DNA from: Callorhinchus milii
Taxonomy: Eukaryota
Length of the DNA: 64,000 nt
Assembly: GCF_018977255.1 (NCBI RefSeq)
Contig: NW_024704742.1
Location: forward strand, 43,774,001 to 43,838,000
Direction: 5' to 3'
Part shown: positions 903-63,506 of the stretch, in pieces
Layout of the letters: each line of letters begins with the position of its first letter
Position numbering within the stretch: position 1 is the stretch's first letter
The notes under the pieces: generated by a model
What the model was told of the DNA's origin: nothing
Databases searched by the model: none
The model's input: the letters and a program-made list of their open reading frames with translations, nothing else
Made by a program: the position numbers and the translations under genes

Positions 903-1450
903 AATAGCACAGAAAGAGGCCATTCGGTCCATCGTGCCTGTGTGCCGGCTCTTTGAAAGAGTTAGGCAACTAGTCCCACTCCCCCACTCTTACACCATAG
1001 CTCTCAGCCTTTCCTTTTTAAGTACCTATCTATTCCCTTTTGAAAGCTATTATCGAATCTGCTCCACCACCCATTCAGGCAGTGAATTCCAGACGGTGAC
1101 AACTCTGGGTAAAACAATTTCTCCACATCTCCCCTCTGGGTTCTTTTGCCAGTTATTTTAAATCTATGTCCCCTGGTTACCGACCCACCACCAGAGGAAA
1201 CTGTTTCTCCCTGTCTACTCTATCAAAACCCCTCATAATTTTGAACACCTCTATTAAATTGCCCCCTCAACCTCTGCTCTTAGGAGAATAATCCCATCTT
1301 CTCTAGTCTCTCCACACAATTTACGTCCCTCACCCCTGGTATAATTTTTGTAAATTTCCTCCGTACCCTTTCCAAGGCCCTGACATCCTTCCTAAAGTGT
1401 GCTGCCCAGAATTGGACACAGTACTCCAGCTATGTCCTAACCAGTGATTA
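903..1450 (-). mobile_element. CR1 LINE 3' fragment, preceded by a short L2 tail at about 845-900
   Basis: Reverse complement resembles the CR1 ORF2 end and 3'UTR (gaatggcctc..ctgtgc), as seen in the copy at 48.1-49.2 kb. Confidence 0.7.
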
Positions 1451-1746
1451 TAACTGAATTTGCACTATAAAAAAGCGAGGCTGCATCATTATCAATATAT
1501 TCAATTAAATTGAGGCTTTTTTTCTGGTTTGAAATGCTTGGAGCAGTGATGCTTAATATTGTGTGATCAACATTACCACTATGTAGGGCTGTAGTTTTTC
1601 AGGGGGAAATGAAATATAATCTCTTACCATGTCATTGCTAATCCTGTAGAACTGCGAAGACCTTTGGACTAAGAAACACGAAAAACAACACCTAAAGCAA
1701 TTATTCCTTGTATATGTATCTGACAGATTTTTTTCTCCCTGAATAG

Positions 1747-1944
<198 letters not shown>

Positions 1945-2615
1945 TAAAGTATGACTACATGTAAACATTGAGTTATTTTGAAGTAATCTGTGATCTTTTA
2001 TTTTTGTATGAAGCTGCTGGATAATCCTGTAGCAGAGAATTGGGTTTGCAGTTATCCCATTTTGCCTACCAGACGTGAACATCCTGCAAAGTATCAAGTA
2101 TTTAAGGAGGTTAAAGTTTGGATGAAAATATTGTAGCGTATAATTTATGTCACCTGGAGAACTGTGTAGAAGATATGGAAATTGGGGAAACATTGGATTT
2201 TACATTATTTGGAATTTATAAAATTTTTCCTTTAAAATACTTGGAAATCAGAACGTAAGATAGAAATAAGGCCATTCATCAATTAAACTACTAAACTTGT
2301 TCTATTTCAGTCCTCACAGAGGACAAACTGAGTTGGTGACCGGAAGGCCAAACATGACAATGTACAACATTTCCCAGTATTTTTTATTGTAAAATACAGC
2401 AACACATTTATTTATACAAATTAATTTCATTTGATTATTGCAGCAAAACATTTCTTTACATTGGCTTTATGGTATTAAGTTGGTTGCCATAAATTAGGAA
2501 ATTGAGTTAAAATCCAATTTATACACCTTCATGTTTGTGTTGTTGTTTCCTGGTCTGAGTATCCTTCTCGGTGTTGAATTATGAAAACATTTTCAATGCT
2601 TTCTGTGAATTTTCA

Positions 2616-13520: not shown

Positions 13521-13781
<261 letters not shown>

Positions 13782-24669: not shown

Positions 24670-24833
24670 TCATCCATTTATGATTTCAGTAATCCAATTA
24701 CTGAAGGCAGTGGTCTTTGCATATATTCCTGGAAGATTAGGTCTTGCACAACCTATTCCACCGGAAACAATTCCTGCCAATATCCAAGCCGAGAATCCAC
24801 ATCTTGGCACAGCAAAGGTCCTCCAGAATCTCC
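24670..24833 (-). CDS. Protease exon 6: catalytic Ser ([10 protein letters not shown]...), frameshifted as assembled
   Basis: ccctag acceptor. [14 protein letters not shown] is followed by a frame change near 24791-24795 to [39 protein letters not shown] (TGA 24672-24670). The unshifted frame stops at TAG 24755-24753. Confidence 0.9.
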
Positions 24834-25516
24834 CTAGGGATACACAAAATACAAAGTTCAGATACGTGAAGATTGCAAAGATCAGGATTGATCTGCGTTC
24901 AATTCTGTATCATCTATTTTTTGAAAAATCTGGTGTACTATTAGTATGCAAGTTTATTCTGTGACTCATGAACTTGCAGACATTTTTATAATTGGAAATA
25001 GAACTGTTGATCAATAAACAGCAAAAATCTGAACAAGTGCAAATTAAACTCATTTTGTACTATTTGATTTTTAAAAAAAAAAAATCCAAAGTATCAAATC
25101 AGTGAGTAGGATAATTTGCAGCTCAACGGGACTGAATAGATTTTTTTTTGAAAAAGTCAGCACAGACACAGTGGGCCAAATGGGCTAATTTCTATAGTTA
25201 TTGTTATATGATTGCATCACAAGCTGACGGATATAAAATGTTTTGGAGGGAGCCACAACCACTTTGTAAAGATACAGACCCACATTCAGTATTAACTAAT
25301 CTCAATCAGAGAGGTCACAATGTGATCTATGGCAAATAGAGAGCATTATCATTGTGGTGGTGATTTGAGGAGTAGGGTGGCAAGACTACAATATCTGCCT
25401 GTGTTACAGCAGATGTAGAATATTCAATGCTGACATTCATCCCACAATTGGAAATGTCTTCATGTTAATATCCATCTTAGGAAAATAAAAATGTCAATAA
25501 AATTGTTATTCAATAC

Positions 25517-25653
25517 CTGGCACGTATCTTTGCCACCTTCTAGGACCCCTGCACACATCATCTGCCTAGTTATCGTTTGGGATGTTAAGGCTTCACAATC
25601 ACTATTGTTGAAAAGCTTAACTTCCGTCTTCAAAAGTTCATTACTGGAGGCTC
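25517..25653 (-). CDS. Protease exon 5 (GASSNELLKTEVKLFNNSDC...MMCAGVLEGGKDTCQ)
   Basis: ttaacag acceptor and CAG/gtattg donor; Asp189 equivalent in KDTCQ implies trypsin-like specificity. Confidence 0.95.
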
Positions 25654-26288
25654 CTGTTAACAAAACAGATGGACATACAATACTTTTAGATTGTACAATC
25701 GCATTAAAGAACAACGGACCCAGTCAAGAGTGGCAAAACAGTGTACAATATATTCTAACATATGTCAATGACATCCAGAGGTAGCACACTGTGTGTGGGT
25801 TCAGAAAATACATTTGTTTGCTACCAGTCATATTTGCCGTAAAGAAATTGTTACTAAGCTCTCGTTAATTCAACAATAACAGTCCACTTGGAGAGTTTGA
25901 TTATATATGGCACATTTCTTTTCGTCCGATTGCAGAAACTGCATCCACTTTAATAATAATGCTTGCATTTGATAAAGCGCCTTATCACATCTTCGAGACG
26001 TCTCAAAGCCCTCCGTAAGAATACACTGTAAACTGAATTGACTGTAGATTTTTTGGGCACCTTTATTTACAAAGACTATTTTGAAGACAAATTTCCAGAA
26101 CAAACATCACGATTCAATGTGATCCTTCCATCCAGAATGCTTGAGCAACACTACAAAGGGTCTTTCCTGAGTTAATTTGCCCTGGTGACCTCCACAGATT
26201 GACTCTTAGAAAAAGCTAAAGGCAAGACATCAGGGGTGCAATTCTAACTTGGGACTCAAATGTTCAGGATTAATAAAAAAATACATAC

Positions 26289-26557
26289 CATTTTCAGATA
26301 TTTTTCCCCACCCAATAATTATGCAGTATTGACCATCAGTAAACAATGGTGTCGCTGGAGGCAGGCAAGCTGGTTGGACAAAGTCTGTATAATGAATGGG
26401 TGTAGTCAACTCCAGTAGAGCAACATCATAATCAGTTGTAGAAAAGTTTGCATCGGGATGAATGATTATTTTCCGGATAGTTCGAATCTGAACATTTGGA
26501 TTCATTTCCTTATTCAAATAATGCACACCAAAGACTGCAGTCAAAGAATCCTCATTC
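26289..26557 (-). CDS. Protease exon 4: catalytic Asp (IIIHPD...DYDVALLEL...VQPACLP...CIIIGWGKISEN)
   Basis: ttggcag acceptor and G/gtatgt donor; phase 2/1; overlaps ORF 26230..26544. Confidence 0.95.
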
Positions 26558-26567
26558 CTGCCAATAG

Positions 26568-27238
26568 AACAACAACAACAAAATTACATTAGTATAGCGC
26601 CTTTCACACTGGGATGATGTCTCAAGGTGCTGGACAGTCAGTTTTCCAGACCTGAGCTGGGGGTTGGGATTGAGGAGGGTGGAGTGCAGGGGGGGAAGGA
26701 GGGTGATCGAAAGCACAGTCGAAGAGGAGAGACTTGGGATAGTTGAGGGTCAAACAAGACGCCAAGGTTTCAGACTGGCTTAGCAAGGTGGAGTGCATAT
26801 CCATGGATAGTGATGCTGTCAGAGCCTGAGTTGAGGAGGTGCTGACGGGAGCCAACCAGGAGAGCCTCAGTCTTGTTGAAGTTCAACTGAAGAAAGTTAG
26901 CTCTCATCCAGGACTTGATGTCTGACAGACATTCTGTCAGGACAGCAGTGATCCTGGAGTCAAGGGTGGAGGCAGAGAGGTACAGTTGGGTGTCAATCGC
27001 ATACATATGGAAGTTGACCCCATGTCTGCGGATGATGTCACCAAGAGGGAGCATATAGATATTGAAGAGGAGTGGACCAAGGACAGAGCCCTGTGGAACG
27101 CTGTATGAGATGGGGCAGGGGCTGGAGGAGAAGCCATTTGTGGAGATGAAGTGGAGGCGGTGTGAGAGGTGCAATCTGAACCATTCAAGGGCAGAACCGT
27201 GAAGCTTTGAGGTGAGAGGAGAGGCGGTGGATGAGAAG
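26568..27238 (-). mobile_element. L2 fragment in protease intron 3, tail abutting the exon 4 acceptor
   Basis: VPQGSVLGPLLFNIYMLPLG RT motif (ORF 26770..27255) and family 3' tail. Confidence 0.9.
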
Positions 27239-27851
27239 AAAATAAAATTAGTCATGCATTATTTGCTGGGAAATTATTATGATTTATTTCCTAACCCAGA
27301 TCCTCAAAGTATTAAACCAATCATTTTAATTGAGGAAAAATGAGAATGGACATAACCTGTAGAGGCATAATTAATGTAGATGCGTCTTATTCAGGTTAGA
27401 CTCAGTGCAAGAGTACTTAATTAATGAGCTTTAAAAGTGCTGAGGATGAGTATATAATATATTTATACATACCCACATTTATATATGTATATATATAATT
27501 CTTAAAATATACACATATATTTAAGACTTGCACAATTACGAATTGTGTAATAACAATTCAACAAACCAAATTCATTCTATGTGGATTGTGGAAGCACTGT
27601 AATCCTATGGAGATTCAGTAACACTAAAATGCAGTACAAGAACCTTTCTAAAAATAAACAGTACAGTATACAATAGATACACGTGTGCTCTAAACACTTG
27701 TAAGCTGAACAGTTTGCAACTTGCCTTCAAAATGCATAGTCACAATGGTTCACAAAATAATTCTGGGGAACACTTTGAGACATCCTCCTGACATGAAAGG
27801 TATAATATCAAGGATTGACTTCCATTATGAAGCAGCTGTGGCAGACTTTAC

Positions 27852-33196: not shown

Positions 33197-35240
33197 CAAC
33201 AACAACAAGGTTACATTTTTGTATAGCGCCTTTCACGTAGGGAGGACGTCCCAAGGTACTGGACAGTGTACAGAATTTCAGACCCGAGTTGGGGTCGGGG
33301 GGGAGAAGGGAGGGGAGGGGAAGGGGGGTGACCGATGGCATGGTCGAAGAGGAGGATTTTGAGGTGGGACTTGAAGGAGGCTAAGGAGGAGGCGAGATGG
33401 AGTGATTTGGGGATGGAATTCCAGAGGTTCGGGGAAGAGTGGCTGAAAGCTCTCCTGTCAATGGTGGGGCGGGTGGGTCGGGGGACGTGGAGCAGGCCAG
33501 AGCCGGCTGAGCGGAGGGAACGGGCAGGGGTTTAGGAGGTCCCAGAGGTAGGGTTGGGCGAGGCCATGGAGGGCTTTGTAGGTGAAGACCAGGATCTTGA
33601 ACTGGATCCTCTGAAGGACAGGGAGCCAAAGAAGTTGGACAAGAATGGGGGAGATGGGGTCACGGAGTTTGGTGCGGGAGAGGACACGGGCTGCAGAGTT
33701 CTGGATTATCTGCAGCCTGTGGAGGGAGGAGTTGGGAAGGCCGACAATTGGGCATTTGCATAGTCGAGCCTGGAGGTGATGAAGGCATGAACAAGAGGTT
33801 CAGGGGCCTGAGGGGTGAGGTAGTGGCGGAGTCGGGTAATGTTACAGAGGTGAGGGAAGGCAGAGCAGGTCATGGCTTGGATGTGGGGAAGAAAAGACAG
33901 TTGAGGGTCAAACAAGACACCCAGGTTCCTGACTGGCTATGGTGAGTTGTAGTGTGCAACCATGGAGGCTGATACTGCCAGAGCCTGAGGCGCTGAGGCG
34001 CTGGCGTGAGCTAATCAGGAGGGCCTCAGTCTTGTTCACATTCAACTGTAAGAAATTTGCCCTCATCCAGGACTTGATGTTCGACAGACAGTCTGTCAGG
34101 ACAGCAGTGGTCCTGGAGTTGAGGGTGGAGTAGAAAGAGTTGGGTGTCATCCGCATACATATGGAAGTTGACCCCATGTCTGTGGATGATGTCACCAAGG
34201 GGGAGCATGTAGATATTAAAGGGGAGAGGGCCAAGGACAGGGCCCTGGGGGACACCAGACTTGACTGTGCGGGGGCTGGAGGAGAAACCGTTAGAGGCAA
34301 CAAAGTGGAGATGGTGAGAGAGGTAGGAATCGAACCAGGCAAGGGCAGGTCTGCGAAGATTAAGTAAAGAGGAGAGGCAGTGTATGAGGATGAAGTGGTC
34401 GACAGTGTCGAAGGCGGCAGAGAGGTCGAGAAGGACAAGGAGGCAGAGGGAGCCCTGATCACAGATGTTCAGAATGTCATTAGTGACTTTGACCGGGGCT
34501 GTTTCCGTGCTGCGGACCGTGCAGAAGCCGGATTGGAGGGGTTCAAAGAGAGAATGGCGAGAAAGGAAGGAGCGGAGCTGGGACCTGACGACTCGTTCCA
34601 GGACCTTGGAGAGGAATGAGAGGTTAAAGATGGAGTGGTAGCTGGAGAAGAGGGATGAGTCCAGGGAAGGATTTTTCAGGATGGGAGTGATGACAGCTGT
34701 TTTTAGGGTGATGGGAACTGAACCAGTGGACAAGGAGAGGTTGATGACATCGGACCGAAGAGGGGCCAGAAGGTGGAGCTGGGAAACGAGGAGAGAGGTG
34801 GGGATGGGATTGAGGGAGCAGGTGGTGGGTTTGAGTTTGCAAACAGTCGTAGTGAGGGAGGAGGGAGAGATAGGATTGAAGGAGTATAGGGAGGGATGGG
34901 TGGAGTTTGGGTCATGAGGGAGAGGTGATGTGATGGTGGACAGGGCAGAGGTGGCTGAACGTATCCCCTGATTTAGGATTCGAAGAAGTCCAGCATCTCC
35001 TCACAGTTGGCGTTTGAGGAGAAGATAGGTGAGACGTGGGAAGGTGGACGGAGGAGACAGTTTGTGGTGGAAAAGAGAAGCCTAGAGTTGTCCTTTGCCT
35101 CCAAGATTACCTTGGACTAGAAGGAGGATTTGGCGGAGGCAAGAGCGCAGCAATAGGACTTGGTGTGAAGCCAAATCTGCCGATGGACCATGAGTTTGAA
35201 TTTGGACCAAGCGCGTTCAGCAGCTCACACTTGTGCCTTG
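33197..35240 (-). mobile_element. Longest L2 copy (about 2 kb) including the RT domain, frameshifted
   Basis: ORF 34026..34733: SKVLERVV, QSGF, STETA, LLDLSAAFDTVDH, GVPQGPVLGP, YADDTQL. Confidence 0.95.
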
Positions 35241-36956: not shown

Positions 36957-36981
36957 NNNNNNNNNNNNNNNNNNNNNNNNN
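36957..36981. other. Assembly gap (25 N)
   Basis: Run of 25 N. Confidence 1.
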
Positions 36982-39270
36982 CACACACACACATTTGTGC
37001 ATGCAACCACACACACTCATACCTGTCCTCCCGCAGCTCACACAAAGACATGCACACACACGCACACTCACATACACACAAATAGACACACAACGCATGA
37101 TGACACACTTGCACACACCTGTCACGCCTACCCTTCCCTCATAAATGTACACACAGTGGATCGATCACTAAGTCATGTATGGACATGATGGGGGGGAAGA
37201 GAGAGCAGGAGAATGTGGTTAGAGTAGTGAGCATATCTTAGTTGTGCAAAAATGTGAAACTCACAATCATTTCCCTTCTGGACCCTGGGAGTGAGACTTT
37301 CTAGCTCTGTACCCCCTGCCCTTGCTAGGAACTCGCTCCCGCCCACACTCCAGCTGTTATGCAGCTGGGAATCCAGGCACGATGACCTTCCAGAAATTGG
37401 GATTCAGGTTGGGAATGCCGACGACCTCTATGTAATCGGAAAAAACAAAGATATTCCTCAAAACAGAACCCAACATTACTGCAGCATCTCACAGACAGGT
37501 ACAGAGACTCAGTCAAACCACATGCCTGTAACTCACTCCCACCCTGGAGAGGTGTGTTATTCTATATAAACTTCTTTGAATTAAATTCCAGCCTGTAACT
37601 CACTCTCAACCCGGAGAGGATGCATTATTCTATATTATAAACCTCCAAACCCTTGGATTAGATTTCAGACTTTATGTCTCTCTAACTACAGACCAGCACT
37701 GGCACCTAATAATGATATTGACAATTCTTGGAGCTGTTTCTCTTGTGCTGCCAGGCTCTCTCGCTCTTGTTTTGGTTCGTGCAGAATGCCAGGAGGTTAA
37801 TTCTTATCCACTGCCTGTCTGTCTCTCGCTTTCACACACTCTCTCTCTCGCTGTCACACTCACTCTCTGTCTCTCTGTCCCTCTCTCTCTAATTTTCTGT
37901 TGCTTACACTGCCCCCCCCTCTCTCTCTGTCTCTCTTTTAGTTTCTGTCTGGCTATCTCTCTTCATCTCTGTCTGTCTGTGTCTGTCTCTCTCTCGGTGT
38001 CACATTCACTCTTTATCCCTCTCTGACTTTCTGTTGCTTACACTCTCTCTCTGTCTGTCTCTCCCTGAGTCTCTGTCTGTCTATCCCTATCTTAGTCTCT
38101 GTCTGGCTTGTCTGTCTGTCTCTCTCTCTTAGTCTCTGCCTGTGCGAGTGTCTGTCCATGTGTGTGTGGGTAGGTATTAACACATGCTCTGACACAAACC
38201 TTCTCCCATCACTTGCCCCTACAGGAGAATGTACAATGCACAGTGGTGAGGTTTGACCCTGTGCCCAGGGAATGCAGCCCATTAACCAGCCTGGCTTTGC
38301 ATTGAGATCAGGAACCAGCTCATGATCAGCCAGCAAGTCTCAGACCTCACGCATCAGCCCATCCTGAACTACCAAACCGCAGCAAGCACACTGGGAATCG
38401 CTGTGAAGCTCTCAGCGACGTCTCTCTGGGTGAAAGGCATTGTGTAAATGGAAGCCGTGAAGCATTGTGAGACATCTCTCTGGCTGTGTAAATGTATTTC
38501 GCTGTGAATCTATTTACCCACGATAAACCTTGTGGTTAATAACAGTAAATTGGAGTGAACAGGCCACAGACAGGAAATGAGGTTTATCATCTCTTGCACT
38601 GCGCTGCTCCTTCCCTCCCTCCCCCTAGCACTGCACTGGAGCGTCAGCCTGGACTGGGAGCTCAAAGTCATGGGGGTGGAGCTTGAACACAACAACAACA
38701 AACTGCATTTACTCAGCACCTTTCACTTTAGGAGGATGTCCCAAGGCACTGGACAGTCGAGGGTTTGCACCCCAGCTGGGGTGTGGATTCGAGAGAGGGG
38801 TTGGGAGAAGATGACTGAAGGCACGGTCAAACCACACTGCCTTCTGACAGAGAGAGACTGAATGTGTGTGTGAGAGAGAGAGAAAGAGAGAGGCTGACCA
38901 AAAAGACACACACAGACTGAGACAGAAAGAGACACACACAGACTGAGACAGAATGGTGTTCCTGTCTCTGATTGCCAGCCTGTCGGGGGCTGAGCTGTGG
39001 ATGGTGTTAAGCTGGTGCCTGTGATATCTCTCACTCTAGTCTCTCCCACTCACTGTTCACATCTTTGGAAACTGAGCGAGAGGGCTAGACATTGGTTTCT
39101 CACCTCAGCTGCTCGCCTCGCAAACCATGACCCAACAATCAGCTATCACCTCTGTCCCCTCATTACACTTCACAGTAATAACTCCCTGCTTCCTACTGAC
39201 TCTATATGTGTGTGTCTCTCTCAGTCTGTGCGTGTAAATGCAATTTTTATGAATGTGAGAGGCAGAAAGG
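36982..39270 (+). repeat. Direct duplication (about 2.3 kb), copy 1; copy 2 at 44321-46605
   Basis: Near-identical by eye. Differences are mostly homopolymer or microsatellite length changes plus two substitutions near the start. Confidence 0.95.
37292..38305 (+). pseudogene. Duplicate of the IgSF C-like (37292-37498), TM (37692-37795) and cytoplasmic (38225-38305) exons
   Basis: Exon sequences appear identical to 44630-45644. No leader or V exon is visible upstream; an N gap lies at 36957-36981. Confidence 0.6.
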
Positions 39271-43145: not shown

Positions 43146-43188
43146 ATGATGCTGAAGTTAAAGAGAATGTGTCTCCCACTGGCAATCA
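43146..43188 (+). pseudogene. IgSF receptor: candidate leader exon (MMLKLKRMCLPLAI)
   Basis: ATG, 14 codons, then A/gtgagt phase-1 donor about 350 nt upstream of a V exon, which is the usual leader layout. The peptide is only moderately hydrophobic. Confidence 0.55.
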
Positions 43189-43535
43189 GTGAGTATCTAT
43201 CTCTGTTCTTGTCTGTTCACAATCCAGAGATCACATATAATTACCTAACGTTGCCCAGCTTCATGGCTCGCATTTACCCAGCACCTCTCCCCACAGAGAG
43301 ACGTCTCACAACACTTCATGGCTTATATTTACCAAGTGCCTTTCACCCAGAGAGTTACATTTACACAGCACCTTTCACCCTTTGTCCCAAAGCGCTTTGT
43401 AGGATACACTGTAAAGCGCAGTGACTGTGATTTGTGGGCGAATCCGGAAGCCATTTGAGTGACTGAGCCTTGGGCTGAGAGTTGCAATGCAAGTTATCAT
43501 TGTTGCCGTTGTGTCTCTCAATCTCTTTCGCACAG

Positions 43536-43941
43536 GTCGGGTGCTTCCAACCTTTCAGAGAGCCAGCCGGGGAGCAAACGTAACAATGTCTTGTGCGATG
43601 GAGTCATTTGGGCGATTTATTGGTTTAAGATCAAAGCAGGTCACATTTCCCCATCTCTGATACTAAGCTACCATCTCCTTACTGGGATCCGTTACTGTAA
43701 AGCGCTCTGAGATGCCGTCCGACGTGGAGGGCGCTATATAAATCCAAGTTGTTGTTGTTATACTTCACGGCTTTGCTTGCTGTCTGGATTTGGTGAACGC
43801 TTCAATCACAGTGGGTACCACAGGGGCTCGTGGAGTTAAGTGTACAAAACATGCTACCAGAAGATTCCGCCACCTATATCTGCTCTTCGGAGATAGCCAG
43901 CAATGTGAGGCTGGGAGACGGAACCAGTCTTGTGGTTACGG
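43536..43941 (+). pseudogene. IgSF receptor: germline-joined V-J (V-set) exon, disrupted
   Basis: ttcgcacag acceptor. Motifs in order: GANVTMSC (Cys 43592), IYWFK (Trp 43621), SGFGERF, LSVQNMLPEDSATYIC (Cys 43881), J-like LGDGTSLVVT. At least two frameshifts, an L2-tail insertion (about 43695-43782), and the donor reads G/atgaga instead of G/gtgaga. Confidence 0.85.
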
Positions 43942-44629
43942 ATGAGAGATCAGGAGTGGGTGGGTGGTGTGGGGGGAGAGATGACCAAGAGCACAGTCAA
44001 CTGCATCAGTTTTGAGATGGAGAGAGCGAGTTGGAGGGAATTCAGGATGGAGCAGACAGTACCAATGTGGGGGGAGCGAGCACCAGTATAGACTCAATGG
44101 GGAGGGAAAAGAGAGCAGAGGACTGGGGTTAGAGTAGAGAGCTCAGAGGAACACACTAACACTTGCACACCTTTCTCTTGCTCATCAGATTCACATACTC
44201 CTCCACCCCCTACCGCACCACTTCCCCCATGCACAATTATTACAGGATGTGCTATGTTGATTACTGCAGAGATGTATCGCCTGTTACGTGTAAACTCACA
44301 TTTGCTGAGGCACACACACACACACACACACATTTGTGCATGCAACCACACACACTCATACCTGTCCTCCCGCAGCTCACACAAAGACATGCACACACAC
44401 GCACACTCACATACACACAAATAAACACACAACACATGATGACACACTTGCACACACCTGTCACGCCTACCCTTCCCTCATAAATGTACACACAGTGGAT
44501 CGATCACTAAGTCATGTATGGACATGATGGGGGGGAAGAGAGAGCAGGAGAATGTGGTTAGAGTAGTGAGCATATCTTAGTTGTGCAAAAATGTGAAACT
44601 CACAATCATTTCCCTTCTGACCCTGGGAG

Positions 44630-44836
44630 TGAGACTTTCTAGCTCTGTACCCCCTGCCCTTGCTAGGAACTCGCTCCCGCCCACACTCCAGCTGTTATGC
44701 AGCTGGGAATCCAGGCACGATGACCTTCCAGAAATTGGGATTCAGGTTGGGAATGCCGACGACCTCTATGTAATCGGAAAAAACAAAGATATTCCTCAAA
44801 ACAGAACCCAACATTACTGCAGCATCTCACAGACAG
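44630..44836 (+). pseudogene. IgSF receptor: short Ig-constant-like or stalk exon (..PTLQLLCSW..DDLYVIG..QHYCSISQT)
   Basis: Open frame with LLC...YC (39 aa between the Cys residues) and a phase-1 donor ACAG/gtacag. The acceptor is uncertain (GAG at 44629 or TAG at 44642). Confidence 0.45.
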
Positions 44837-44862
44837 GTACAGAGACTCAGTCAAACCACATG

Positions 44863-45008
44863 CCTGTAACTCACTCCCACCCTGGAGAGGGTGTGTTATT
44901 CTATATAAACTTCTTTGAATTAAATTCCAGCCTGTAACTCACTCTCAACCCGGAGAGGATGCATTATTCTATATTATAAACCTCCAAACCCTTGGATTAG
45001 ATTTCAGA
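44863..45008 (+). repeat. Two about 70-bp tandem units (cctgtaactcactc...ttattctata..aaac...ttccag); also at about 37524-37669
   Basis: Direct imperfect repeat between the C-like and TM exons. Confidence 0.7.
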
Positions 45009-45030
45009 CTTTATGTCTCTCTAACTACAG

Positions 45031-45134
45031 ACCAGCACTGGCACCTAATAATGATATTGACAATTCTTGGAGCTGTTTCTCTTGTGCTGCCAGGCTCTCT
45101 CGCTCTTGTTTTGGTTCGTGCAGAATGCCAGGAG
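45031..45134 (+). pseudogene. IgSF receptor: transmembrane exon ((D)QHWHLIMILTILGAVSLVLPGSLALVLVRAECQE)
   Basis: ctaactacag acceptor (phase 1); about 24-aa uncharged hydrophobic stretch; GAG/gttaat donor (phase 0). Confidence 0.7.
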
Positions 45135-45563
45135 GTTAATTCTTATCCACTGCCTGTCTGTCTCTCGCTTTCACACACTCTCTCTCTCGCTGTCACACTC
45201 ACTCTCTGTCTCTCTGTCCCTCTCTCTCTAATTTTCTGTTGCTTACACTGCCCCCCCCTCTCTCTCTGTCTCTCTTTTAGTTTCTGTCTGGCTATCTCTC
45301 TTCATCTCTGTCTGTCTGTGTCTGTCTCTCTCTCGGTGTCACATTCACTCTTTATCCCTCTCTGACTTTCTGTTGCTTACACTCTCTCTCTGTCTGTCTC
45401 TCCCTGAGTCTCTGTCTGTCTATCCCTATCTTAGTCTCTGTCTGGCTTGTCTGTCTGTCTCTCTCTCTTAGTCTCTGCCTGTGCGAGTGTCTGTCCATGT
45501 GTGTGTGGGTAGGTATTAACACATGCTCTGACACAAACCTTCTCCCATCACTTGCCCCTACAG

Positions 45564-45644
45564 GAGAATGTACAATGCACAGTGGTGAGGTTTGACCCTG
45601 TGCCCAGGGAATGCAGCCCATTAACCAGCCTGGCTTTGCATTGA
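45564..45644 (+). pseudogene. IgSF receptor: cytoplasmic exon (ENVQCTVVRFDPVPRECSPLTSLALH*) with degenerate ITIM-like motif
   Basis: cccctacag acceptor, phase 0, matching the TM donor. VQCTVV is one base (TGC vs TAC) from VxYxxV. Confidence 0.6.
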
Positions 45645-47242
45645 GATCAGGAACCAGCTCATGATCAGCCAGCAAGTCTCAGACCTCACGCATCAGCCCA
45701 TCCTGAACTACCAAACCGCAGCAAGCACACTGGGAATCGCTGTGAAGCTCTCAGCGACGTCTCTCTGGGGTGAAAGGCATTGTGTAAATGGAAGCCGTGA
45801 AGCATTGTGAGACATCTCTCTGGCTGTGTAAATGTATTTCGCTGTGAATCTATTTACCCACGATAAACCTTGTGGTTAATAACAGTAAATTGGAGTGAAC
45901 AGGCCACAGACAGGAAATGAGGTTTATCATCTCTTGCACTGCGCTGCTCCTTCCCTCCCTCCCCCTAGCACTGCACTGGAGCGTCAGCCTGGACTGGGAG
46001 CTCAAAGTCATGGGGTGGAGCTTGAACACAACAACAACAAACTGCATTTACTCAGCACCTTTCACTTTAGGAGGATGTCCCAAGGCACTGGACAGTCGAG
46101 GGTTTGCACCCCAGCTGGGGTGTGGATTCGAGAGAGGGGTTGGGAGAAGATGACTGAAGGCACGGTCAAACCACACTGCCTTCTGACAGAGAGAGACTGA
46201 ATGTGTGAGAGAGAGAGAAAGAGAGAGGCTGACCAAAAAGACACACACAGACTGAGACAGAAAGAGACACACACAGACTGAGACAGAATGGTGTTCCTGT
46301 CTCTGATTGCCAGCCTGTCGGGGCTGAGCTGTGGATGGTGTTAAGCTGGTGCCTGTGATATCTCTCACTCTAGTCTCTCCCACTCACTGTTCACATCTTT
46401 GGAAACTGAGCGAGAGGGCTAGACATTGGTTTCTCACCTCAGCTGCTCGCCTCGCAAACCATGACCCAACAATCAGCTATCACCTCTGTCCCCTCATTAC
46501 ACTTCACAGTAATAACTCCCTGCTTCCTACTGACTCTATATGTGTGTGTCTCTCTCAGTCTGTGCGTGTAAATGCAATTTTTTATGAATGTGAGAGGCAG
46601 AAAGGTATCCCCCCATCCTTGCACAACTCCACTGGCTTCCCATCACACAGAGGATACAGTTCAAGATCCTGGTCCTCACCTTCAAAGCCCTCCTTTGGCC
46701 TCGCTCTCCCCTACCTCCTAACTCCCTACCCATGCTGCTCGCTCCTTACGCTGAGCGGGCTCCGATCTGCTTCACGTCCACCGCCTCGCTCGCCCCACCG
46801 TTGGCAGACGGGCCTTCTGCTACCCTGCCCCCACCCTCTGGAACTCCATCCCACAGTCCCTCCGCCTCAACCCCTCCCTTTCCATCTTCAAGACCCATCT
46901 CAAGATCCTCCTCTTCGACCGTGTTTTCGATCTCCCTGCTTCGACCCCTGCCCTCCACCCTCCCCGACCCCGACCCCAAGCTCGGGTCCGAAACTCTGAC
47001 TGTCCATGCTCATTGGGACATCCTTCCGATGTGAAAGGCGCTATACAAATGTAATGTTGTTGTTCTGTCTCACTCACTCGCTCCTGACTCCCTCCCTCCC
47101 TCACTATCTCTCTCACTCCCTCAATGTACTGCATTTACCCATGAGGTGCAACCTCCCACCCCTTCTTTCATCTCTCCATTCACTCGCTAATCCACTCACT
47201 CACCAATTGACTGACTGTTGTTTCATGTTAACAGTATTAAAT

Positions 47243-52910: not shown

Positions 52911-53876
52911 TCTGGGTGATTGTTAGTCAGGACACTGAGAGAAGCTGCCCTTTCTTTCCAATAAATATTTTGGGAATTTCTTTGTGTAGGTGGAACACAT
53001 ACAAAACTCTCAGTCTTAGTTTGGAGATACTCTTAAGCAAAGTGATGGGTTTCGTACATTTCAGACACCCGGCTGCCCCCATCCCCCCCACCCCCCACCA
53101 AATAAACAAACATTTTTTCTATCTAGGGTTTGTTGACCAGGATACTGAGAGAAACTGCCTTTTCTTTTTGACTCGTGCCTTTGGAACTTTTTAAAGTCCG
53201 TCTGAACAGACACCAAAGACCTTTGTTTGACGTACCATTTTAGTCAGCTGAGTGTCTGAGATATGCTTAAGAGTATCCAAACTGGACTAAGAGTTCCACA
53301 TCTGTAAGCATAAGGAAATTTCCGTATGTCTGGAATGCATTGTGCGCACTACCTGGAGGATCGCACCCTCCTTAGTTAATGCTGGAGAATATTAGGCACG
53401 AGTTGGCTAGAGCCACGCTCGTGCCATTGAGAACACTGTCTGGCAAGCGTCCTGTTTGACTTGGTAAAGCCACCTACCCCATATACACATTCCAACAGGA
53501 AGAATCCTTTCTCACAGTGGCTGGTCAACCTATCCCTGTAAGTCCTGGTGATGAGCCAGGCTGACTGGTCTGTCCTCACCAGTGCTCTGGAGTACTATGG
53601 ACCTGCTTGGCTCGGGAACTGTATCATCTTTACTTCTATCGCGCTATCCCAACACTGCATTAGAGTGTCAGCCTCAAATACTGAGCAGTGCCATCCCAGT
53701 CAGTGGAGTCTGAGTTTCCTTTCGCCTTTTGCTTTCAGGTTACTCCTCTTTTAAAGTGTGGTGTATGAACATCCAATAGGAATAATAATCCTTGCATTTT
53801 ATGTCTTCGAGATGTCTCAAAGCGCTTCACAGAATATACTGTAAAGTGAATTTACAATTTACAATTGCGTACAGCC

Positions 53877-54211
53877 TGTTGATACTCACTCTCTTGGCTA
53901 TGTTGATACTCACTCTCTAGGCTATGTTGATACTCACTCTCTAGGCTATGTTGATACTCACTCTCTAGGCTATGTTGATACTCACTCTCTAGGCTATGTT
54001 GATACTCACTCTCTAGGCTATGTTGATGCTCACTCTCAAGGCTATGTTGATACTCACTCTCTAGGCTATGTTGATACTCACTCTCTAGGCTATGTTGATG
54101 CTCACTCTCTAGGCTATGTTGATGCTCACTCTCTAGGCTATGTTGATGCTCACTCTCTAGGCTATGTTGATGCTCACTCTCTAGGCTATGTTGATGCTCA
54201 CTCTCTAGGCT
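53877..54211. repeat. Minisatellite, 24-bp unit x 14 (tgttgat[a/g]ctcactctctaggcta)
   Basis: Head-to-tail units with no spacers. Confidence 0.97.
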
Positions 54212-54812
54212 CTGCATCCGTTGCTGAATGAGAATGCTGAATCATTTACTTCATGGCTATTTGTGAGATGATGCTATGCACAAAGTGGTTGCTGCGTTTG
54301 CCAAATACAAAATCACTACACTTAATCATGTCAACCTGCCCGCTCCCTCCACTCAGCAGGCTCCATCCTGCCTCAACATTGGCGGTTAGGCCTTCAGCCT
54401 CTCTGCCTTCACCCACTGGAACTCCATCCCACATTCCCTTTGCCTCACTCCCTCCCTTGCCTCCTTCAAGGCACGTCTCAAGACCCTCCTCTTCAACCTC
54501 GCCTTTGGCCACCCTCCTATCCCTAAACTCCCTGCCTTCCACCCTTCTTGATCTTAACCACCAGCTTGAGTCCAAATCCCTCACAATCCAGCGCCTTGGG
54601 ACATCCTCCCGACGTGAAAGACGCTATACAAATGTAATCTGTTGTTAATTTGTTAACAGTAATTCCCTGAAAAATGCTTTGGGAAGTTACAGTGCAGTAT
54701 GCCAAATGCAAGGATGTTTATTAGTATTTGCTTTCCAAGTTGGTACTAATGTCCACCTCACGAAATTAAGATAAAGCTCTAGAGTTACTGTTCGCCTCTG
54801 TTTCTGTTCCAG

Positions 54813-54931
54813 GTCCAGCTTTGCTATTTGCAAAGGTTAAACGCAAAGAAGAACAGGTCAGGAGGTTTTATGCCTGTGCAGCCTGCAGAGACAGAAAGGA
54901 CTGCAATTTTTTCCAGTGGGAAGATGAAAAG
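54813..54931 (+). CDS. ZCCHC4: ZCCHC4 exon ((G)[39 protein letters not shown])
   Basis: ttccag acceptor and AAG/gtagca donor; GRF zinc finger [20 protein letters not shown]. Confidence 0.96.
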
Positions 54932-55204
54932 GTAGCAAAGGACAATCTATTAACTGTACCTATGTTTTAGAACAGCATTTTTCTGATTAATGTAGAGGTT
55001 GTTTTTATTTTCATTAACGTATTGCTGATTTTATAAAAGAAAGTACAGTGGGAATGGTGGTGAATAGTGTATTTTGGAGGACTACCATGCCTCAAGAAAT
55101 GTAGGATGTGAGTTGGTTCCTCTGGTTTCCCCACACAGTATCGTTAGCTTGGCTCAGTTAGTATCACTCTCACCTCTTGAAGTCAGGAGGTTGTGGGTTC
55201 AAAG

Positions 55205-57684: not shown

Positions 57685-59304
57685 GTAATAAAGCTGTAAC
57701 TTGAGCCAGATGTTTACAGGAGAGCAGATGCTTCACTGTTAGATTTAATAATAAAAAAGGCAAAAAAAAAAATCCTGTACCCTTGAGAGTGAAGGAGATC
57801 AGGAATTTAACTGGGTGTAAAGAAGAGAAAATTGAAGGTGGAACATTGGCATTGCAGGAAGCATCACTAGTTCGATGTGAATTTCTGAGAGTGGGTTCTC
57901 ACAGAGCAGGTTGCCAATCTTGCCGATGATATTTAAAGGCTTTCGTAGTTGCTGTGTCCTGTTATCAGAGGCTTGCACACAATGTGGAATCTCTTTCCAG
58001 AAATCAATATTTGATGGGAGATGAAATATTAATGTGTATGGAGAAAATGACTAATCCTTGACTTTTGATATTGCGTCTTATCATGTTGTCAAAATATCTC
58101 GCAACATTTCACAGGATTGCCTATGGACGGTATTGACTGTATTTTTTAAGCGAATATGGCAGGTAGTTTTCCTCACAGCAATACCCCACCTGCAGACATG
58201 AACACACTGTGGTTTCTCTTCAGATCATATAAATCTTGACGTGAATGACAATTTTCATCTTGCAGATTGTTAACTAACAAAGATGCATAGTTTATTGTCA
58301 AACTGGAACAGATGGGGAGATGGTATTAAACGATCTGCTCTGAAGTGACAAAAAGGCACAAGATCAATGGATTGAATGACCTCTGCCAGTTAATATGTTC
58401 CTAAAGATGTGTGCTTCACATGAGCAGCCAGAAGAACATTCATAGGATCTATTGCGTGAGCACATGCAGTTGGAGAATAAAAGGTGTCTCCATCTTTGGG
58501 ATCTTACATACTCCAATTGCATATATATAGCCCATAAAATAGAGTCAATACACTTAACAGTATATTCTGTCAATAGCTTTGAGACACCTTGAAGACGTGA
58601 TGAGGTGGTAAATCAAATGCAAGGATTATTATTATATTTTTATATATATACAGTTGGTAGATATCTCCTCTCTAATAAAGTCAGATGATATTTGAGTCAG
58701 AAGTTCTATGTCTGGACTTCAAACTCAGTCTAAGCTGCCACATTAGGATAATGGCTAATAATAGTATAACAATGCAAGGGAATGCTGCATTGTAAAAGGT
58801 GCCGTCCTTCGCATAAGACATTAAACCATGGTCCCATCTGCCTATTCAGGTGGACGTTAGAGATCCATGGTTCAATTTGAAAAGAGAAGGGAGTTTCTAG
58901 TAAAGTAGCCATAGAGTACGTATATTTGTTATATTAGGGTTGAAAATGTGTCTATGAGGAAAATAAAGATGGAATAATGCTTCAACATCAAAAAAAGTTT
59001 GACTGGATGTTAAATTCGACTACAAGTCGGTGCCGCCACCTCCAATTGAGACTTGAGTGTTCTCTGCAGGAGTTGCACATTACGTCCAGGGGTGTGTTTT
59101 TCCACTCTTTTTATCAACAACATTTGAACCTTATTCCTTGAATAAGATTGGACTTTTTCTTTTTGAAATACCGTCACGCTGGTTAAGATTTTCCAAACGC
59201 TCGTCGTTTTTTTAAGAGTTGCCTTGAAATTGGTAAAAATATGAGGATGTCATTGTTGGAAAATGAAAGATTTATTTGGATGGTTACATTTTTTTTTAAA
59301 AAAG

Positions 59305-59580
59305 GTATCAGAGCTTCGTGGCTTTACCCCTGGCAAAGAGAAAGTTTTGTGCAGACTGTCAGCTCTTGCTGCTTCCTGAAGAATGGGGTCCACACAGCGC
59401 CCACTGCCTGCTCAGTGACGTCTCACTCGCTCAATTGAAAAGACCAAGCCGCCTCCTGCTTCCGCTCGAGAACAAAAAGACCAACGCTCAGTACCTGTTT
59501 GCTGACCGCACTTGCCAGTTCCTGTTAGATATAATTATTTCACTCGGATTTCGTAGAGTGCTCTGTGTCGGGACTCCACG
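59305..59580 (+). CDS. ZCCHC4: ZCCHC4 exon ([49 protein letters not shown])
   Basis: aag acceptor after a T tract and CG/gtatgt donor; C2H2 finger and start of the methyltransferase domain. Confidence 0.97.
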
Positions 59581-60789
59581 GTATGTTCATCCATAAAATG
59601 TCGGTGTTAATGAAGCTTTTCTGACTTCCTACATCCCCAGAGTAATGCCTCGCTGCAGTGCACTGTACCCAGTCAATCTGCTGACTGATACCTGACCAGC
59701 TCTAAGCTTTGCATTTCATGAGCTATTAACCTAATTTGTACATTCAATTGAACTTCGCAGCTGCTAGGGATTCATTCTAGGGACATAAATCTAATGAAGT
59801 TCAGTAAAGACTTCTGTATTTTTGTTAAAGAGGCATTTTGTGTCTGTGTGAAAAAGCCCATCCCACTTACTCTAATGCAGTTACTGTTATGTAGGTTGAG
59901 TAGAGATGGGTAAATGCTCTCTGATGCTTATAATGCAGAAGCACTTTAATCGAAGCAGCCCAACAACACCCAAGACTATCGCAGAATTCACCCCGATTAC
60001 ACCACAGGGCATTTGCAGCAGTGGAGGCAACAGAAAACAAGTACACATGTGCCATTTCACGTACATGTAACGTAGAGAAGTTAGGAATCACTAGTTCATA
60101 TTTTTAGCTATCAGCACTGCCTAATTTCCAAGGGCACAAAGGAGCACCTATTGAAAAAAACATATTGCTGACCTACATGCACAGGCTGAGGGCCAAAGGC
60201 AAAATGAGGGCCAACAATTGCTTTTGAATTGCTTCCTCTGATGCCAAGTAATAATAATAATAATAATACTTGCATTTGATTGCAATTTATCACATTGAAA
60301 TAATAATAATCCTTGTAATTCTCACCCCTGAGTCAGGAGGTTGTGAGTGTAAGACTCAGGTCTTGCAACCCATGTAGTCTGCTGACATTTGAATGCAGAG
60401 CTGGTTGTGTGCTATATTGTCGGAGGTTACATACTTTGGATGAGACGTTAAACAAAGGTTCCATCTGTCCATCTTTCGAAAAGAGAAGGGAGTTTATCTC
60501 GTTGTTCTGGCCAGCAATTCTTCCCAATTAAAATTGGTCCCTCACTCCATGGCTGTTTGTGGGATATTGTTATGCACAAATTGGTTCCTTCTACATTTGC
60601 CCACAAAATAAACATAGTTTTATCACTTGACAGTATATTCTATGAAGCCCTTTGAGAGGTCTCAATAGTGTGACATAACACTATATCAAATAAAGGGATT
60701 ATTATAAATGTTCACTGATAGAATGTAGTAAAATATTGGATGTACTGTATGTTGCAAAATTAACAAGAGTGTTTTGAATGAACTTTCAG

Positions 60790-62826: not shown

Positions 62827-63506
62827 CTAACATTGCCTTGCTGGATGGCCCAGGAAAACTGGCGAACCTGTCTCTTTGTGGGGGAACAAATCTGTTCCCA
62901 ATGGGGCATAGAATAACTCATGAGAATGTCCAGTAGCGCTGTTTTCTAAGTATCCAGTTTGCATATTTATTAGCTTTGAATGAGCAGCACTGGGACGTAA
63001 TGGAAAGAGACGAAAGGCTGGATAGATTGGCTCAGTAAAATGGTGATGCATTCTGTTGAAAAGACTTGATGTGATGTTGGAAAATTCCTGTGTCAGATTC
63101 ATGTGATCAGCATTGTAGAACATGACAAGCCCCGTCTCGTAGTCAACGCACAGCCCAACCCTTTCTACCTGTGAGGATTTCATTTTGCAGTTAATATTGC
63201 TATCGTTGTGCCAGGCTAAGAGATGGTTATACTTGAATTCAGTGCACCATGACTGCCTGTTTCTCCCAAGTTTTGTGGATTTGTGGTTCCCTTTCCACTC
63301 TATAGACTCAAATGCAATTCCAATAGCCCACTGTGTAGAAGCTTTTACATCATCCTCCCAGTCATGCTTTCCTCTCATCAAAGCTTTGTCGCAGAGGATT
63401 CTTGGGAACGTTAGTTAATTCATTTGTTGCAACATGCTGGTTTGATCCTTGGAAATTAGCACGTTTTTGTGTGCTGATGCCACAGTGAGGGAGACCAATG
63501 AGTGTT
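62827..63506 (-). pseudogene. B30.2 (PRY-SPRY) terminal exon of a TRIM/butyrophilin-type gene, nested antisense in ZCCHC4 intron 5
   Basis: tttttctctcttag acceptor. SAHKNVLISKD (PRY), GKHDWEDDV, WAIGIA, KLGRNRQSWC, RVGLCVDYETGLVMFYNA and FTEPIYPAF (SPRY). In-frame TAA at 63417-63415. Confidence 0.88.

Follow-up and report, generated by a model that had tools for sequence, protein, structure and literature searches.

Based on our analysis of a genomic stretch of the chimaera Callorhinchus milii, we propose that it holds the remains of a non-rearranging receptor gene of the variable-joining (V-J) type. The stretch (the window in what follows) comprises 64,000 nt, positions 43,774,001-43,838,000 (+) of contig NW_024704742.1 in assembly GCF_018977255.1 (991.5 Mb, 1,762 contigs). 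With 80 kb on each side it forms the examined region of 224 kb (448 kb of strand), and positions given without a locus name are those of the window. The locus probably represents what is left of an immunoglobulin superfamily (IgSF) membrane receptor gene, now dead and single-copy: a decayed V-set exon with a J-like end, accompanied by candidate exons for the remainder of the protein (Table 1). The ancestral gene would have been arranged as leader, V-J exon, possibly a short stalk, an uncharged transmembrane (TM) exon and a short tail. Its product may be pictured as a type I membrane protein with one V-J ectodomain, a layout like that of CD8, CD7, CD28/CTLA-4 or NKp30, and unlike that of the two-Ig-domain NITR or the V-C1 SIRP receptors. 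The V-J exon is disabled by a frame change past the B-strand Cys, a young 100-bp repeat in the C'-C'' region and a variable indel near 43833.

A single exon once coded for a complete V-set domain with a J-like G strand, unsplit by a recombination signal sequence (RSS). The exon starts at 43536, preceded by ...tttcgcacag, and closes with the phase-1 donor TGG/gtgggt. Its frame in phase with the leader gives S-RVLPTFQRASRGANVTMSC, a second frame gives VIWAIYWFKIKAGHISPSLILSY, the stretch past the interruption reads GFGERFNHSGYHRGSW, and a third frame gives LSVQNMLPEDSATYICSSEIASNVRLGDGTSLVVT; the motifs VTMSC, IYWFK, RF, EDSATYIC and LGDGTSLVVT are all on the plus strand, spread over these three frames. 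The Pfam V-set family (PF07686) matches the piece at 43797-43940 with E=1.4e-4 over positions 70-109 of the 109 in its profile; the score of this 48-aa piece lies under the 26-bit gathering cut-off, as expected for a fragment. It is the sole Ig-family match among the 128 plus-strand open reading frames (ORFs; at least 38 aa) scanned with Pfam between 41.0 and 60.5 kb of the window. A profile built from 13 V domains of the teleost NITR-like relatives that we retrieved, run on 9,862 six-frame pieces (at least 15 aa) across the 224 kb, ranks the three V pieces first, second and third, with full-sequence E values of 1.2e-8, 0.42 and 0.75. These pieces match profile positions 71-110, 28-44 and 6-22 respectively, colinear with their order in the DNA, and a read-through of the exon with an X at each break scores 51.7 bits over profile positions 6-110. 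Pfam and profile scans revealed no other V-set exon within 80 kb on either side.

The core of the domain is complete in the V pieces, with the Cys of VTMSC, the Trp of IYWF and the Cys of YIC that mark membership of the V-set. The F strand EDSATYIC is antigen-receptor-like and the loop resembling the third complementarity-determining region has nine residues. Nine codons past YIC, in a single open frame, comes LGDGTSLVV with the GxG bulge and the TxLxV pattern of a joined V-J domain, its first J-like position being Leu, not Phe or Trp. The interval from the Cys codon to the J-like motif is free of RSS heptamers. V-set hallmarks and a J-like end without RSS had been claimed in an initial annotation of this stretch, and both are upheld. 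A CACAGTG heptamer is present inside the exon, at 43807-43813 in the D-strand region; it is misplaced for an RSS, a nonamer is missing at both the 12- and the 23-base spacing, and because the window holds 19 heptamers of this type (10 and 9 on the two strands) we take it to be a chance occurrence.

The V-J locus is a pseudogene and, as it is, makes no protein. The leader-compatible frame, which carries the B strand at 43538-43594, is closed by the stop codon 43658-43660; the C strand is read in another frame. An alternative single-frame reading of the N-terminal part, with the leader donor 4 bases on, was rejected: the B strand is lost and the score is 40.4 versus 51.7 bits. The second lesion, a repeat insertion bracketed by the target duplication ATACT (43660-43664 and 43760-43764), sits in the C'-C'' region of the domain and supplies an in-frame stop. 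The inserted repeat is a young high-copy element: among the matches listed from C. milii itself, 43 others have 76-99% identity (40 of them 92-99%; 1,650 candidates), and the word depth in sequencing run X1 is ~274,000 at the insertion versus ~7.6 beside it. The interspersed repeat in the leader intron is older; among the matches listed by the own-genome DNA search (1,369 candidates), 40 of ~75 bp are at 80-89%. We checked the lesions in contigs of runs X1 and X2. Both insertion junctions are spanned by contigs of both runs and neither run has an indel at the first frame change, so the first two lesions are not assembly errors. At the third site, 43827-43834, the D and E strands of the reference are in different frames; X2 has an extra A after 43833 that brings the two strands into a shared frame, while the X1 allele, with C>A at 43827 and a loss of 6 bases, is still out of frame. 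X1, X2 and the reference show mutual differences at several sites, which indicates at least two further haplotypes. The initial description of a pseudogenised, non-rearranging V-J type IgSF gene is supported; what that description had overlooked is the 100-bp insertion splitting the V exon and the presence of exons 3-5 twice in the window.

Table 1. Features of the V-J locus, its lesions and its neighbourhood (window positions unless a locus name is given)
Feature	Position	Strand	Details
Putative split-leader exon	43146..43188	+	ATG-led ORF, 14 codons MMLKLKRMCLPLAI + 1 base, phase 1
Leader intron, 347 bp	43189..43535	+	Older interspersed-repeat copy at ~43383-43460
V-J exon, V-set Ig domain, decayed	43536..43959	+	Pfam, profile ranks, read-through score
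B strand GANVTMSC	codons from 43538	+	Leader-compatible frame
C-C' strands IYWFKIKAGHISPSLILSY	within 43536..43959	+	Shifted frame
D strand GERF	from 43768	+	
E-F-G strands LSVQNMLPEDSATYIC...LGDGTSLVVT	within 43536..43959	+	
Frame change, B-strand Cys codon (43592-43594) to C-strand Trp	43595..43620	+	Frame listing, read-through score
Repeat insertion, 100 bp	43665..43764	+	3' end of high-copy interspersed repeat, (GTT)n tail
Indel site, varies between individuals	43827..43834	+	X1, X2 contigs
Candidate middle exon, 69 aa	44630..44836	+	Canonical AG/GT, phase 1 to 1
Candidate TM exon, DQHWHLIMILTILGAVSLVLPGSLALVLV then RAECQE	45031..45134	+	Phase 1 in, phase 0 out
Candidate last coding exon, 26 aa + stop	45564..45644	+	Phase 0; predicted
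Second copy of 44321-46605	36982..39270	+	99.5% over 2,292 columns
SepSecS exons	L018, L020	-	Pfam
PI3/PI4-kinase exons	L023 and window 13521-13781	+	Pfam
Trypsin-family serine protease, three exons	24673-26583	-	Pfam Trypsin profile 47-220, best E=1.3e-16
GRF zinc finger	54770-54967	+	E=3.2e-11
N6-adenine methyltransferase piece	59300-59593	+	E=0.001
SPRY/B30.2 long open exon	62830-63414	-	E=7.7e-12; apparently within or beside ZCCHC4-like gene
Leucine-rich repeat piece	L026		Pfam
APC4 exons	L027, L028	-	Pfam

What kind of gene did the V-J exon belong to? The initial annotation had put five segments in order, namely leader, V-J, Ig-C-like domain, TM segment and a tail likened to an immunoreceptor tyrosine-based inhibitory motif (ITIM). 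Of this order the V-J exon stands and the leader and TM exons are probable; the Ig-C-like domain and the ITIM-like tail fall away. The putative leader ends in the donor TCA/gtgagt. Given the three downstream exon bounds in Table 1, all eight splice sites are canonical AG/GT and the phases run 1,1,1,0, as had been claimed. The TM candidate is a hydrophobic segment of 26 residues that indeed contains no charged residue, with a Kyte-Doolittle mean of 2.44 over 21 aa. Kyte-Doolittle windows of at least 2.4 occur at 0.136 per kb per strand. When a pyrimidine-rich AG and a GTR are demanded as flanks inside the ORF, 7 of 61 windows qualify, at 5 distinct loci in the 448 kb of strand (three of these loci being TG- or CT-rich simple sequence), and ~0.01-0.02 such windows are expected by chance in the 1.7 kb past the V exon. 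Because flanked candidates are this rare, a type I membrane receptor is likely, and so is the TM exon itself.

The segment between the V-J and TM exons has a Ser/Pro-rich start, two Cys residues 40 apart and a Trp two residues past the first Cys. It has no Pfam match at E<=10, the 18 candidates that it drew from a word-indexed protein collection include no relative, and the best Atlas feature search result (0.87) points to unrelated FHA-type clusters at a recognition value of 2022, below the mark of 2300. An Ig C-like domain was rejected for this segment on account of its 69 aa, the Cys-Cys spacing of 40, the early Trp and the lack of a profile match. Should the segment be a true exon, the abundance of Ser and Pro at its start would point to a stalk; it may, on the other hand, not be an exon, and the TM exon also joins straight onto the phase-1 donor of the V exon. 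The predicted tail, ENVQCTVVRFDPVPRECSPLTSLALH, has no tyrosine. The consensus of an ITIM is (S/I/V/L)xYxx(I/V/L), and VQCTVV, with Cys at the required Tyr, would fit this pattern only if that Cys were replaced by Tyr. With a tail that lacks a tyrosine motif and a TM segment that lacks an adaptor charge, neither the ligand nor the signal of the ancestor can be read from the relic.

Several points weigh against a complete receptor gene. Apart from the V-J exon, every exon of the model (leader, middle, TM and tail) is predicted from ORF shape, hydrophobicity and splice phase only, and the hydrophobic core of the leader is weak. TM-like windows are common when no flanks are demanded (~0.2 expected per 1.7 kb), and the flank criteria of our chance estimate were chosen after seeing the case, for which reason we grade the TM exon as likely and not as established. 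There is no AATAAA between 45600 and 48000, within 2.4 kb 3' of the stop. Nothing 3' of the V exon has a homologue or a family match: Pfam gives none for the middle, TM or tail segments; searches of the own genome with the middle and TM exons return, besides chance-level matches, only the locus and the local copy with 99.5% identity; and 52 retrieved proteins, NITR-type V+I proteins among them, hit only the V exon when aligned by tblastn to the whole window. The initial annotation had named as a refutation the case in which relatives of the V exon are not accompanied by relatives of the downstream segments; as far as these searches reach, this is what was observed, since no homologue of the downstream exons turned up anywhere. 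The own-genome search scores few candidates, so that a diverged paralogue could escape it. In addition, excision of the 100-bp insertion leaves the two halves of the V exon out of frame; a further small indel must therefore exist, and the history of decay is only partly reconstructed.

These points can be read in another way, in which the V-J exon, perhaps with the leader, is the sole real relic, whereas the middle, TM and tail segments stay open by chance in intergenic DNA rich in repeats. Besides the missing family and homologue matches, the tail without a motif and the want of a polyadenylation signal past it, this explanation can draw on the background rate of hydrophobic windows, two more of which, in simple sequence rich in CT, are no further than 400 bp away, and on the selection of the fitting phases from many possible AG/GT pairs. 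We nevertheless consider it rather unlikely. A TM-like window with both flanks that is not simple sequence is rare, all flanked windows together occupying 5 loci in the whole 448 kb of strand; the present one lies 1.07 kb 3' of the V exon, on the same strand and in matching phase. Moreover, a V-set exon must come from a larger gene.

Where does the V domain itself come from? With the 48-aa V piece as query, phmmer found 41 proteins at E<=1e-3 among 1.84 billion representatives. The top matches are giant multi-Ig proteins that sum many weak F-strand matches. Twenty of the 41 were looked up by name; none of these 20 is a cartilaginous-fish protein, and the ones whose alignment also takes in the G strand are, for the most part, V-set plus Ig_3 proteins of teleosts. 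They include Anguilla 'signal-regulatory protein beta-2-like' proteins whose second domain and ITIM tail are of NITR type, and the best G-strand-covering relative, such a teleost NITR-like protein from Anguilla, shares 45% over 44 aa (40 bits; E = 6e-5 library-wide). Among Protein Data Bank sequences, the best matches to the V domain are rearranged antibody and T-cell receptor (TCR) V-J domains, and a word-index search of longer proteins with the 48-aa piece yielded 11 candidates, none at E<=1. In the genome of C. milii the V pieces find no paralogue, only their own locus and chance-level matches, and with the same outcome for the middle and TM exons, apart from the local copy, the supposition of a family with intact paralogues elsewhere loses its footing. 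The best own-genome match is the V-set exon of locus L011 on C8, with 33 bits and 51% over 39 aa; at a genome-wide E=3.9 this is chance level. Conversely, a teleost NITR-type protein used as query finds the C8 cluster of immunoglobulin light chain (IgL)-type V-J exons and many V segments, and the relic at E=0.05. As judged from these alignments, the V domain of the relic is generically antigen-receptor-like and without a close relative.

A decayed orphon of a rearranging receptor, for example a germline-joined IgL V-J exon copied out of its cluster, would account for the antibody and TCR matches in the structure database, and C. milii does have a tandem germline-joined IgL-type V-J cluster at C8:2.89-3.15 Mb from which such a copy could come. 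We regard this origin as very unlikely. The own IgL V-J exons score at most 27 bits against the V domain of the window (29-32% identity), compared with 40 bits for the teleost NITR-like V and 33 for L011. The initial annotation had counted nesting among such V genes as an orphon against its reading; going by these scores, the domain does not nest within the species' own germline-joined IgL V-J genes. None of the 128 plus-strand ORFs has a C1-set match and a TM-like exon lies 3' instead, and there is no close paralogue, as would be expected of a recent orphon. Germline-joined IgL genes, a form that many IgL genes of cartilaginous fish take, share with the relic the fusion of V and J in the germline; they differ from it in having a C1-set C exon and no TM, their product being secreted.

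Some of the V-J loci met in these searches deserve description in their own right. The exons in the C8 cluster (L032-L039, L043) have a spacing of ~10-12 kb and read, in one case, ...EDAADYYC...FGQGTKLSLK; in several of them a stop interrupts the part that was matched. L011 (C8:3163380-3166499) adjoins this IgL-type cluster and has an intact V-set exon at 1213-1662 (+) (Pfam E=2.2e-15) with the J-like end GNGSRLVV, and a TM-containing ORF at 2194-2430 (+), ~0.5 kb 3' of the V exon. Its loop ...TPPF... before the G strand presumably recalls the CD28/CTLA-4 family; a word-index search with this V exon, restricted to longer lengths, gave 101 candidates and no match. Finally, L035 (C3:2830264-2833599) contains at 1360-1860 (-) an intact single-exon V-J domain (Pfam V-set E=2.8e-13) with the sequence ...VYYCAVWEDVFGNGTELNVT.

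Among the known receptor families, NITR may be compared first. The available text of one preprint describes NITR as having V and I domains, the latter with six conserved cysteines, together with J segments, a TM and a tail, places the holostean (gar, bowfin) clusters near runx1 and donson, and states that homologues have not been found in cartilaginous fishes (10.1101/2021.06.11.448072). The relic resembles NITR in having V and a J-like strand in one exon without RSS, in being probably a type I membrane protein and in its best sequence matches that include the G strand. It differs in that NITR typically has a second, I-type domain with six conserved cysteines, whereas past the V domain of the relic there is no Ig match and the middle exon has two Cys; and while NITR genes form large clusters, the relic is a single copy with PI4K2B and ZCCHC4 as neighbours. 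NITR proteins have either an ITIM in the cytoplasmic tail or, for pairing with an adaptor, a charged residue in the TM segment, unlike the relic with its tail devoid of Tyr and its TM segment devoid of charge. Since the I domain, the cluster and the NITR neighbours are all absent, membership of NITR fails. In SIRP the N-terminal domain is a V domain and two C1-set domains come after it; as neither the C1-set nor any other Ig family was matched past the V domain in the 128 ORFs, the SIRP layout is not present either. Both families had been named for comparison in the initial annotation.

A looser connection would assign the decayed gene to the NITR lineage, or to a common ancestor of NITR, and make it the first such trace in a cartilaginous fish; its probability is as slim as that of the orphon. 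It could explain why the best G-strand-covering matches are teleost proteins with V and I domains and ITIM tails, and the B and C strands can also be aligned with these. The similarity is weak, however, and limited to generic V-J features, and the I-type domain, the ITIM and the gene cluster are missing from a locus with different neighbours.

Non-rearranging V-J genes of other kinds offer further points of reference. UrIg and UrIg2 of elasmobranchs are described, in the available text of the source, as having a single-exon V-J with split leader, several C1 domains and a TM, and as located in the major histocompatibility complex (MHC) or beside immunoglobulin heavy chain or TCR genes (PMC12227049). 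Set against this description, the relic has in common with UrIg the single-exon V-J with split leader in a cartilaginous fish; it differs by having no C1 exons and no MHC, Ig or TCR gene in the 224 kb. As far as the available texts go, NKp30 and PRARP are V-J genes in the MHC (PMC10751288), and a list of joined V-J genes comprises NKp30, PRARP, NITR, SIRP, CD8 and CD79 (PMC11599192). In the 224 kb examined, the relic does not share the MHC location of NKp30 and PRARP. The arrangement that we favour for the ancestral gene finds a parallel elsewhere. CD8, CD7, CD28/CTLA-4 and NKp30 have a single V domain on a stalk. The likeness would extend to the exon order, in which a leader precedes a V domain whose G strand has a GxG bulge, a short linker comes next, and a TM segment and a short tail complete the protein. 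No motif specific to one of these families was recognised, and the best own-genome match, L011, with its V-set exon and TM ORF, is such a gene. The TM segment of NKp30 carries an Arg; that of the relic does not, and its locus is not beside MHC genes.

An intact gene whose lesions are assembly errors is scarcely credible: the assembly does disagree with both runs by single-base indels at four sites and X2 restores the frame at 43833, but both insertion junctions are present in X1 and X2 contigs, neither run has an indel at the first frame change, and X1 holds another frame-breaking allele at 43827-43833. The four disagreements, at 43345, 44618, 46011 and 46319, each consist of one extra base in both X1 and X2 contigs relative to the assembly, which suggests single-base consensus errors. 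The second copy of the downstream part starts right past an N gap (36957-36981, 25 N), inside the same (CA)n tract, and its middle, TM and last exons are identical in protein to those of the 44321-46605 set. The differences between the copies are nearly all 1-base indels. The X1 and X2 contigs contain one version only, which matches the 36982-39270 copy, and not 44321-46605, at 46011 and 46319, and one X2 contig connects the V side, across the (CA)n, with the duplicated sequence. The second copy is therefore probably assembly redundancy beside the gap and not a paralogue. Together with the indel errors, this probable duplicated segment by the gap matters to annotators of the region. Runs X5 and X6, which we guess to be RNA, cover repeat parts only and no unique exon sequence, and they are uninformative on expression.

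What are the implications of a V-J relic in a chimaera? Single-exon V-J genes are sought, according to the available texts, as relatives of the gene split by the RAG transposon, the event from which antibodies and TCRs arose (PMC12227049; PMC11599192). Taken alone the relic adds little, as it is a dead singleton with a V domain of generic V-J likeness. As a further gene of this kind, found in a chimaera within conserved synteny of non-immune genes, it nonetheless marks a precise place in which to seek intact orthologues in other chondrichthyans. One could go further and see in it the last holocephalan trace of an ancient single-copy V-J receptor, kin to the NITR stock and distantly to the stock of rearranging receptors, a proposal that we put forward as decidedly unlikely. 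If it were true, NITR-like V-J receptors would date back to the jawed-vertebrate ancestor, and intact orthologues might survive in the SEPSECS-PI4K2B-ZCCHC4-ANAPC4 block of sharks, rays and other chimaeras.

The genes of this block were recognised in a Pfam scan of the neighbourhood that used 322 ORFs of at least 75 aa, left from 606 after dropping 282 of low complexity and 2 crossing a locus boundary; they follow one another as listed in Table 1, from the SepSecS to the APC4 exons, with the relic between the trypsin and the GRF zinc-finger exons. The relic lies between PI4K2B-like and trypsin-like genes on one side and ZCCHC4 on the other, in a region that is not an immune-gene region. The 5' exons of the trypsin-like gene must lie rightwards, towards the relic. 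The pair of GRF zinc finger and methyltransferase piece fits ZCCHC4, whose first recognisable exon lies ~9 kb 3' of the relic, and we take SEPSECS-PI4K2B-ZCCHC4-ANAPC4 to be also the order at human 4p15.2. The repeats of the area include a minisatellite at 53845-54228, open on both strands with an 8-residue unit (DTHSLGYV on the plus strand), and reverse-transcriptase fragments of the long interspersed nuclear element type at 26773-27258 (-), 34029-35000 (-) and L028:988-1434. Much of the window from 3 to 50 kb consists of related repeat copies with 74-96% mutual identity.

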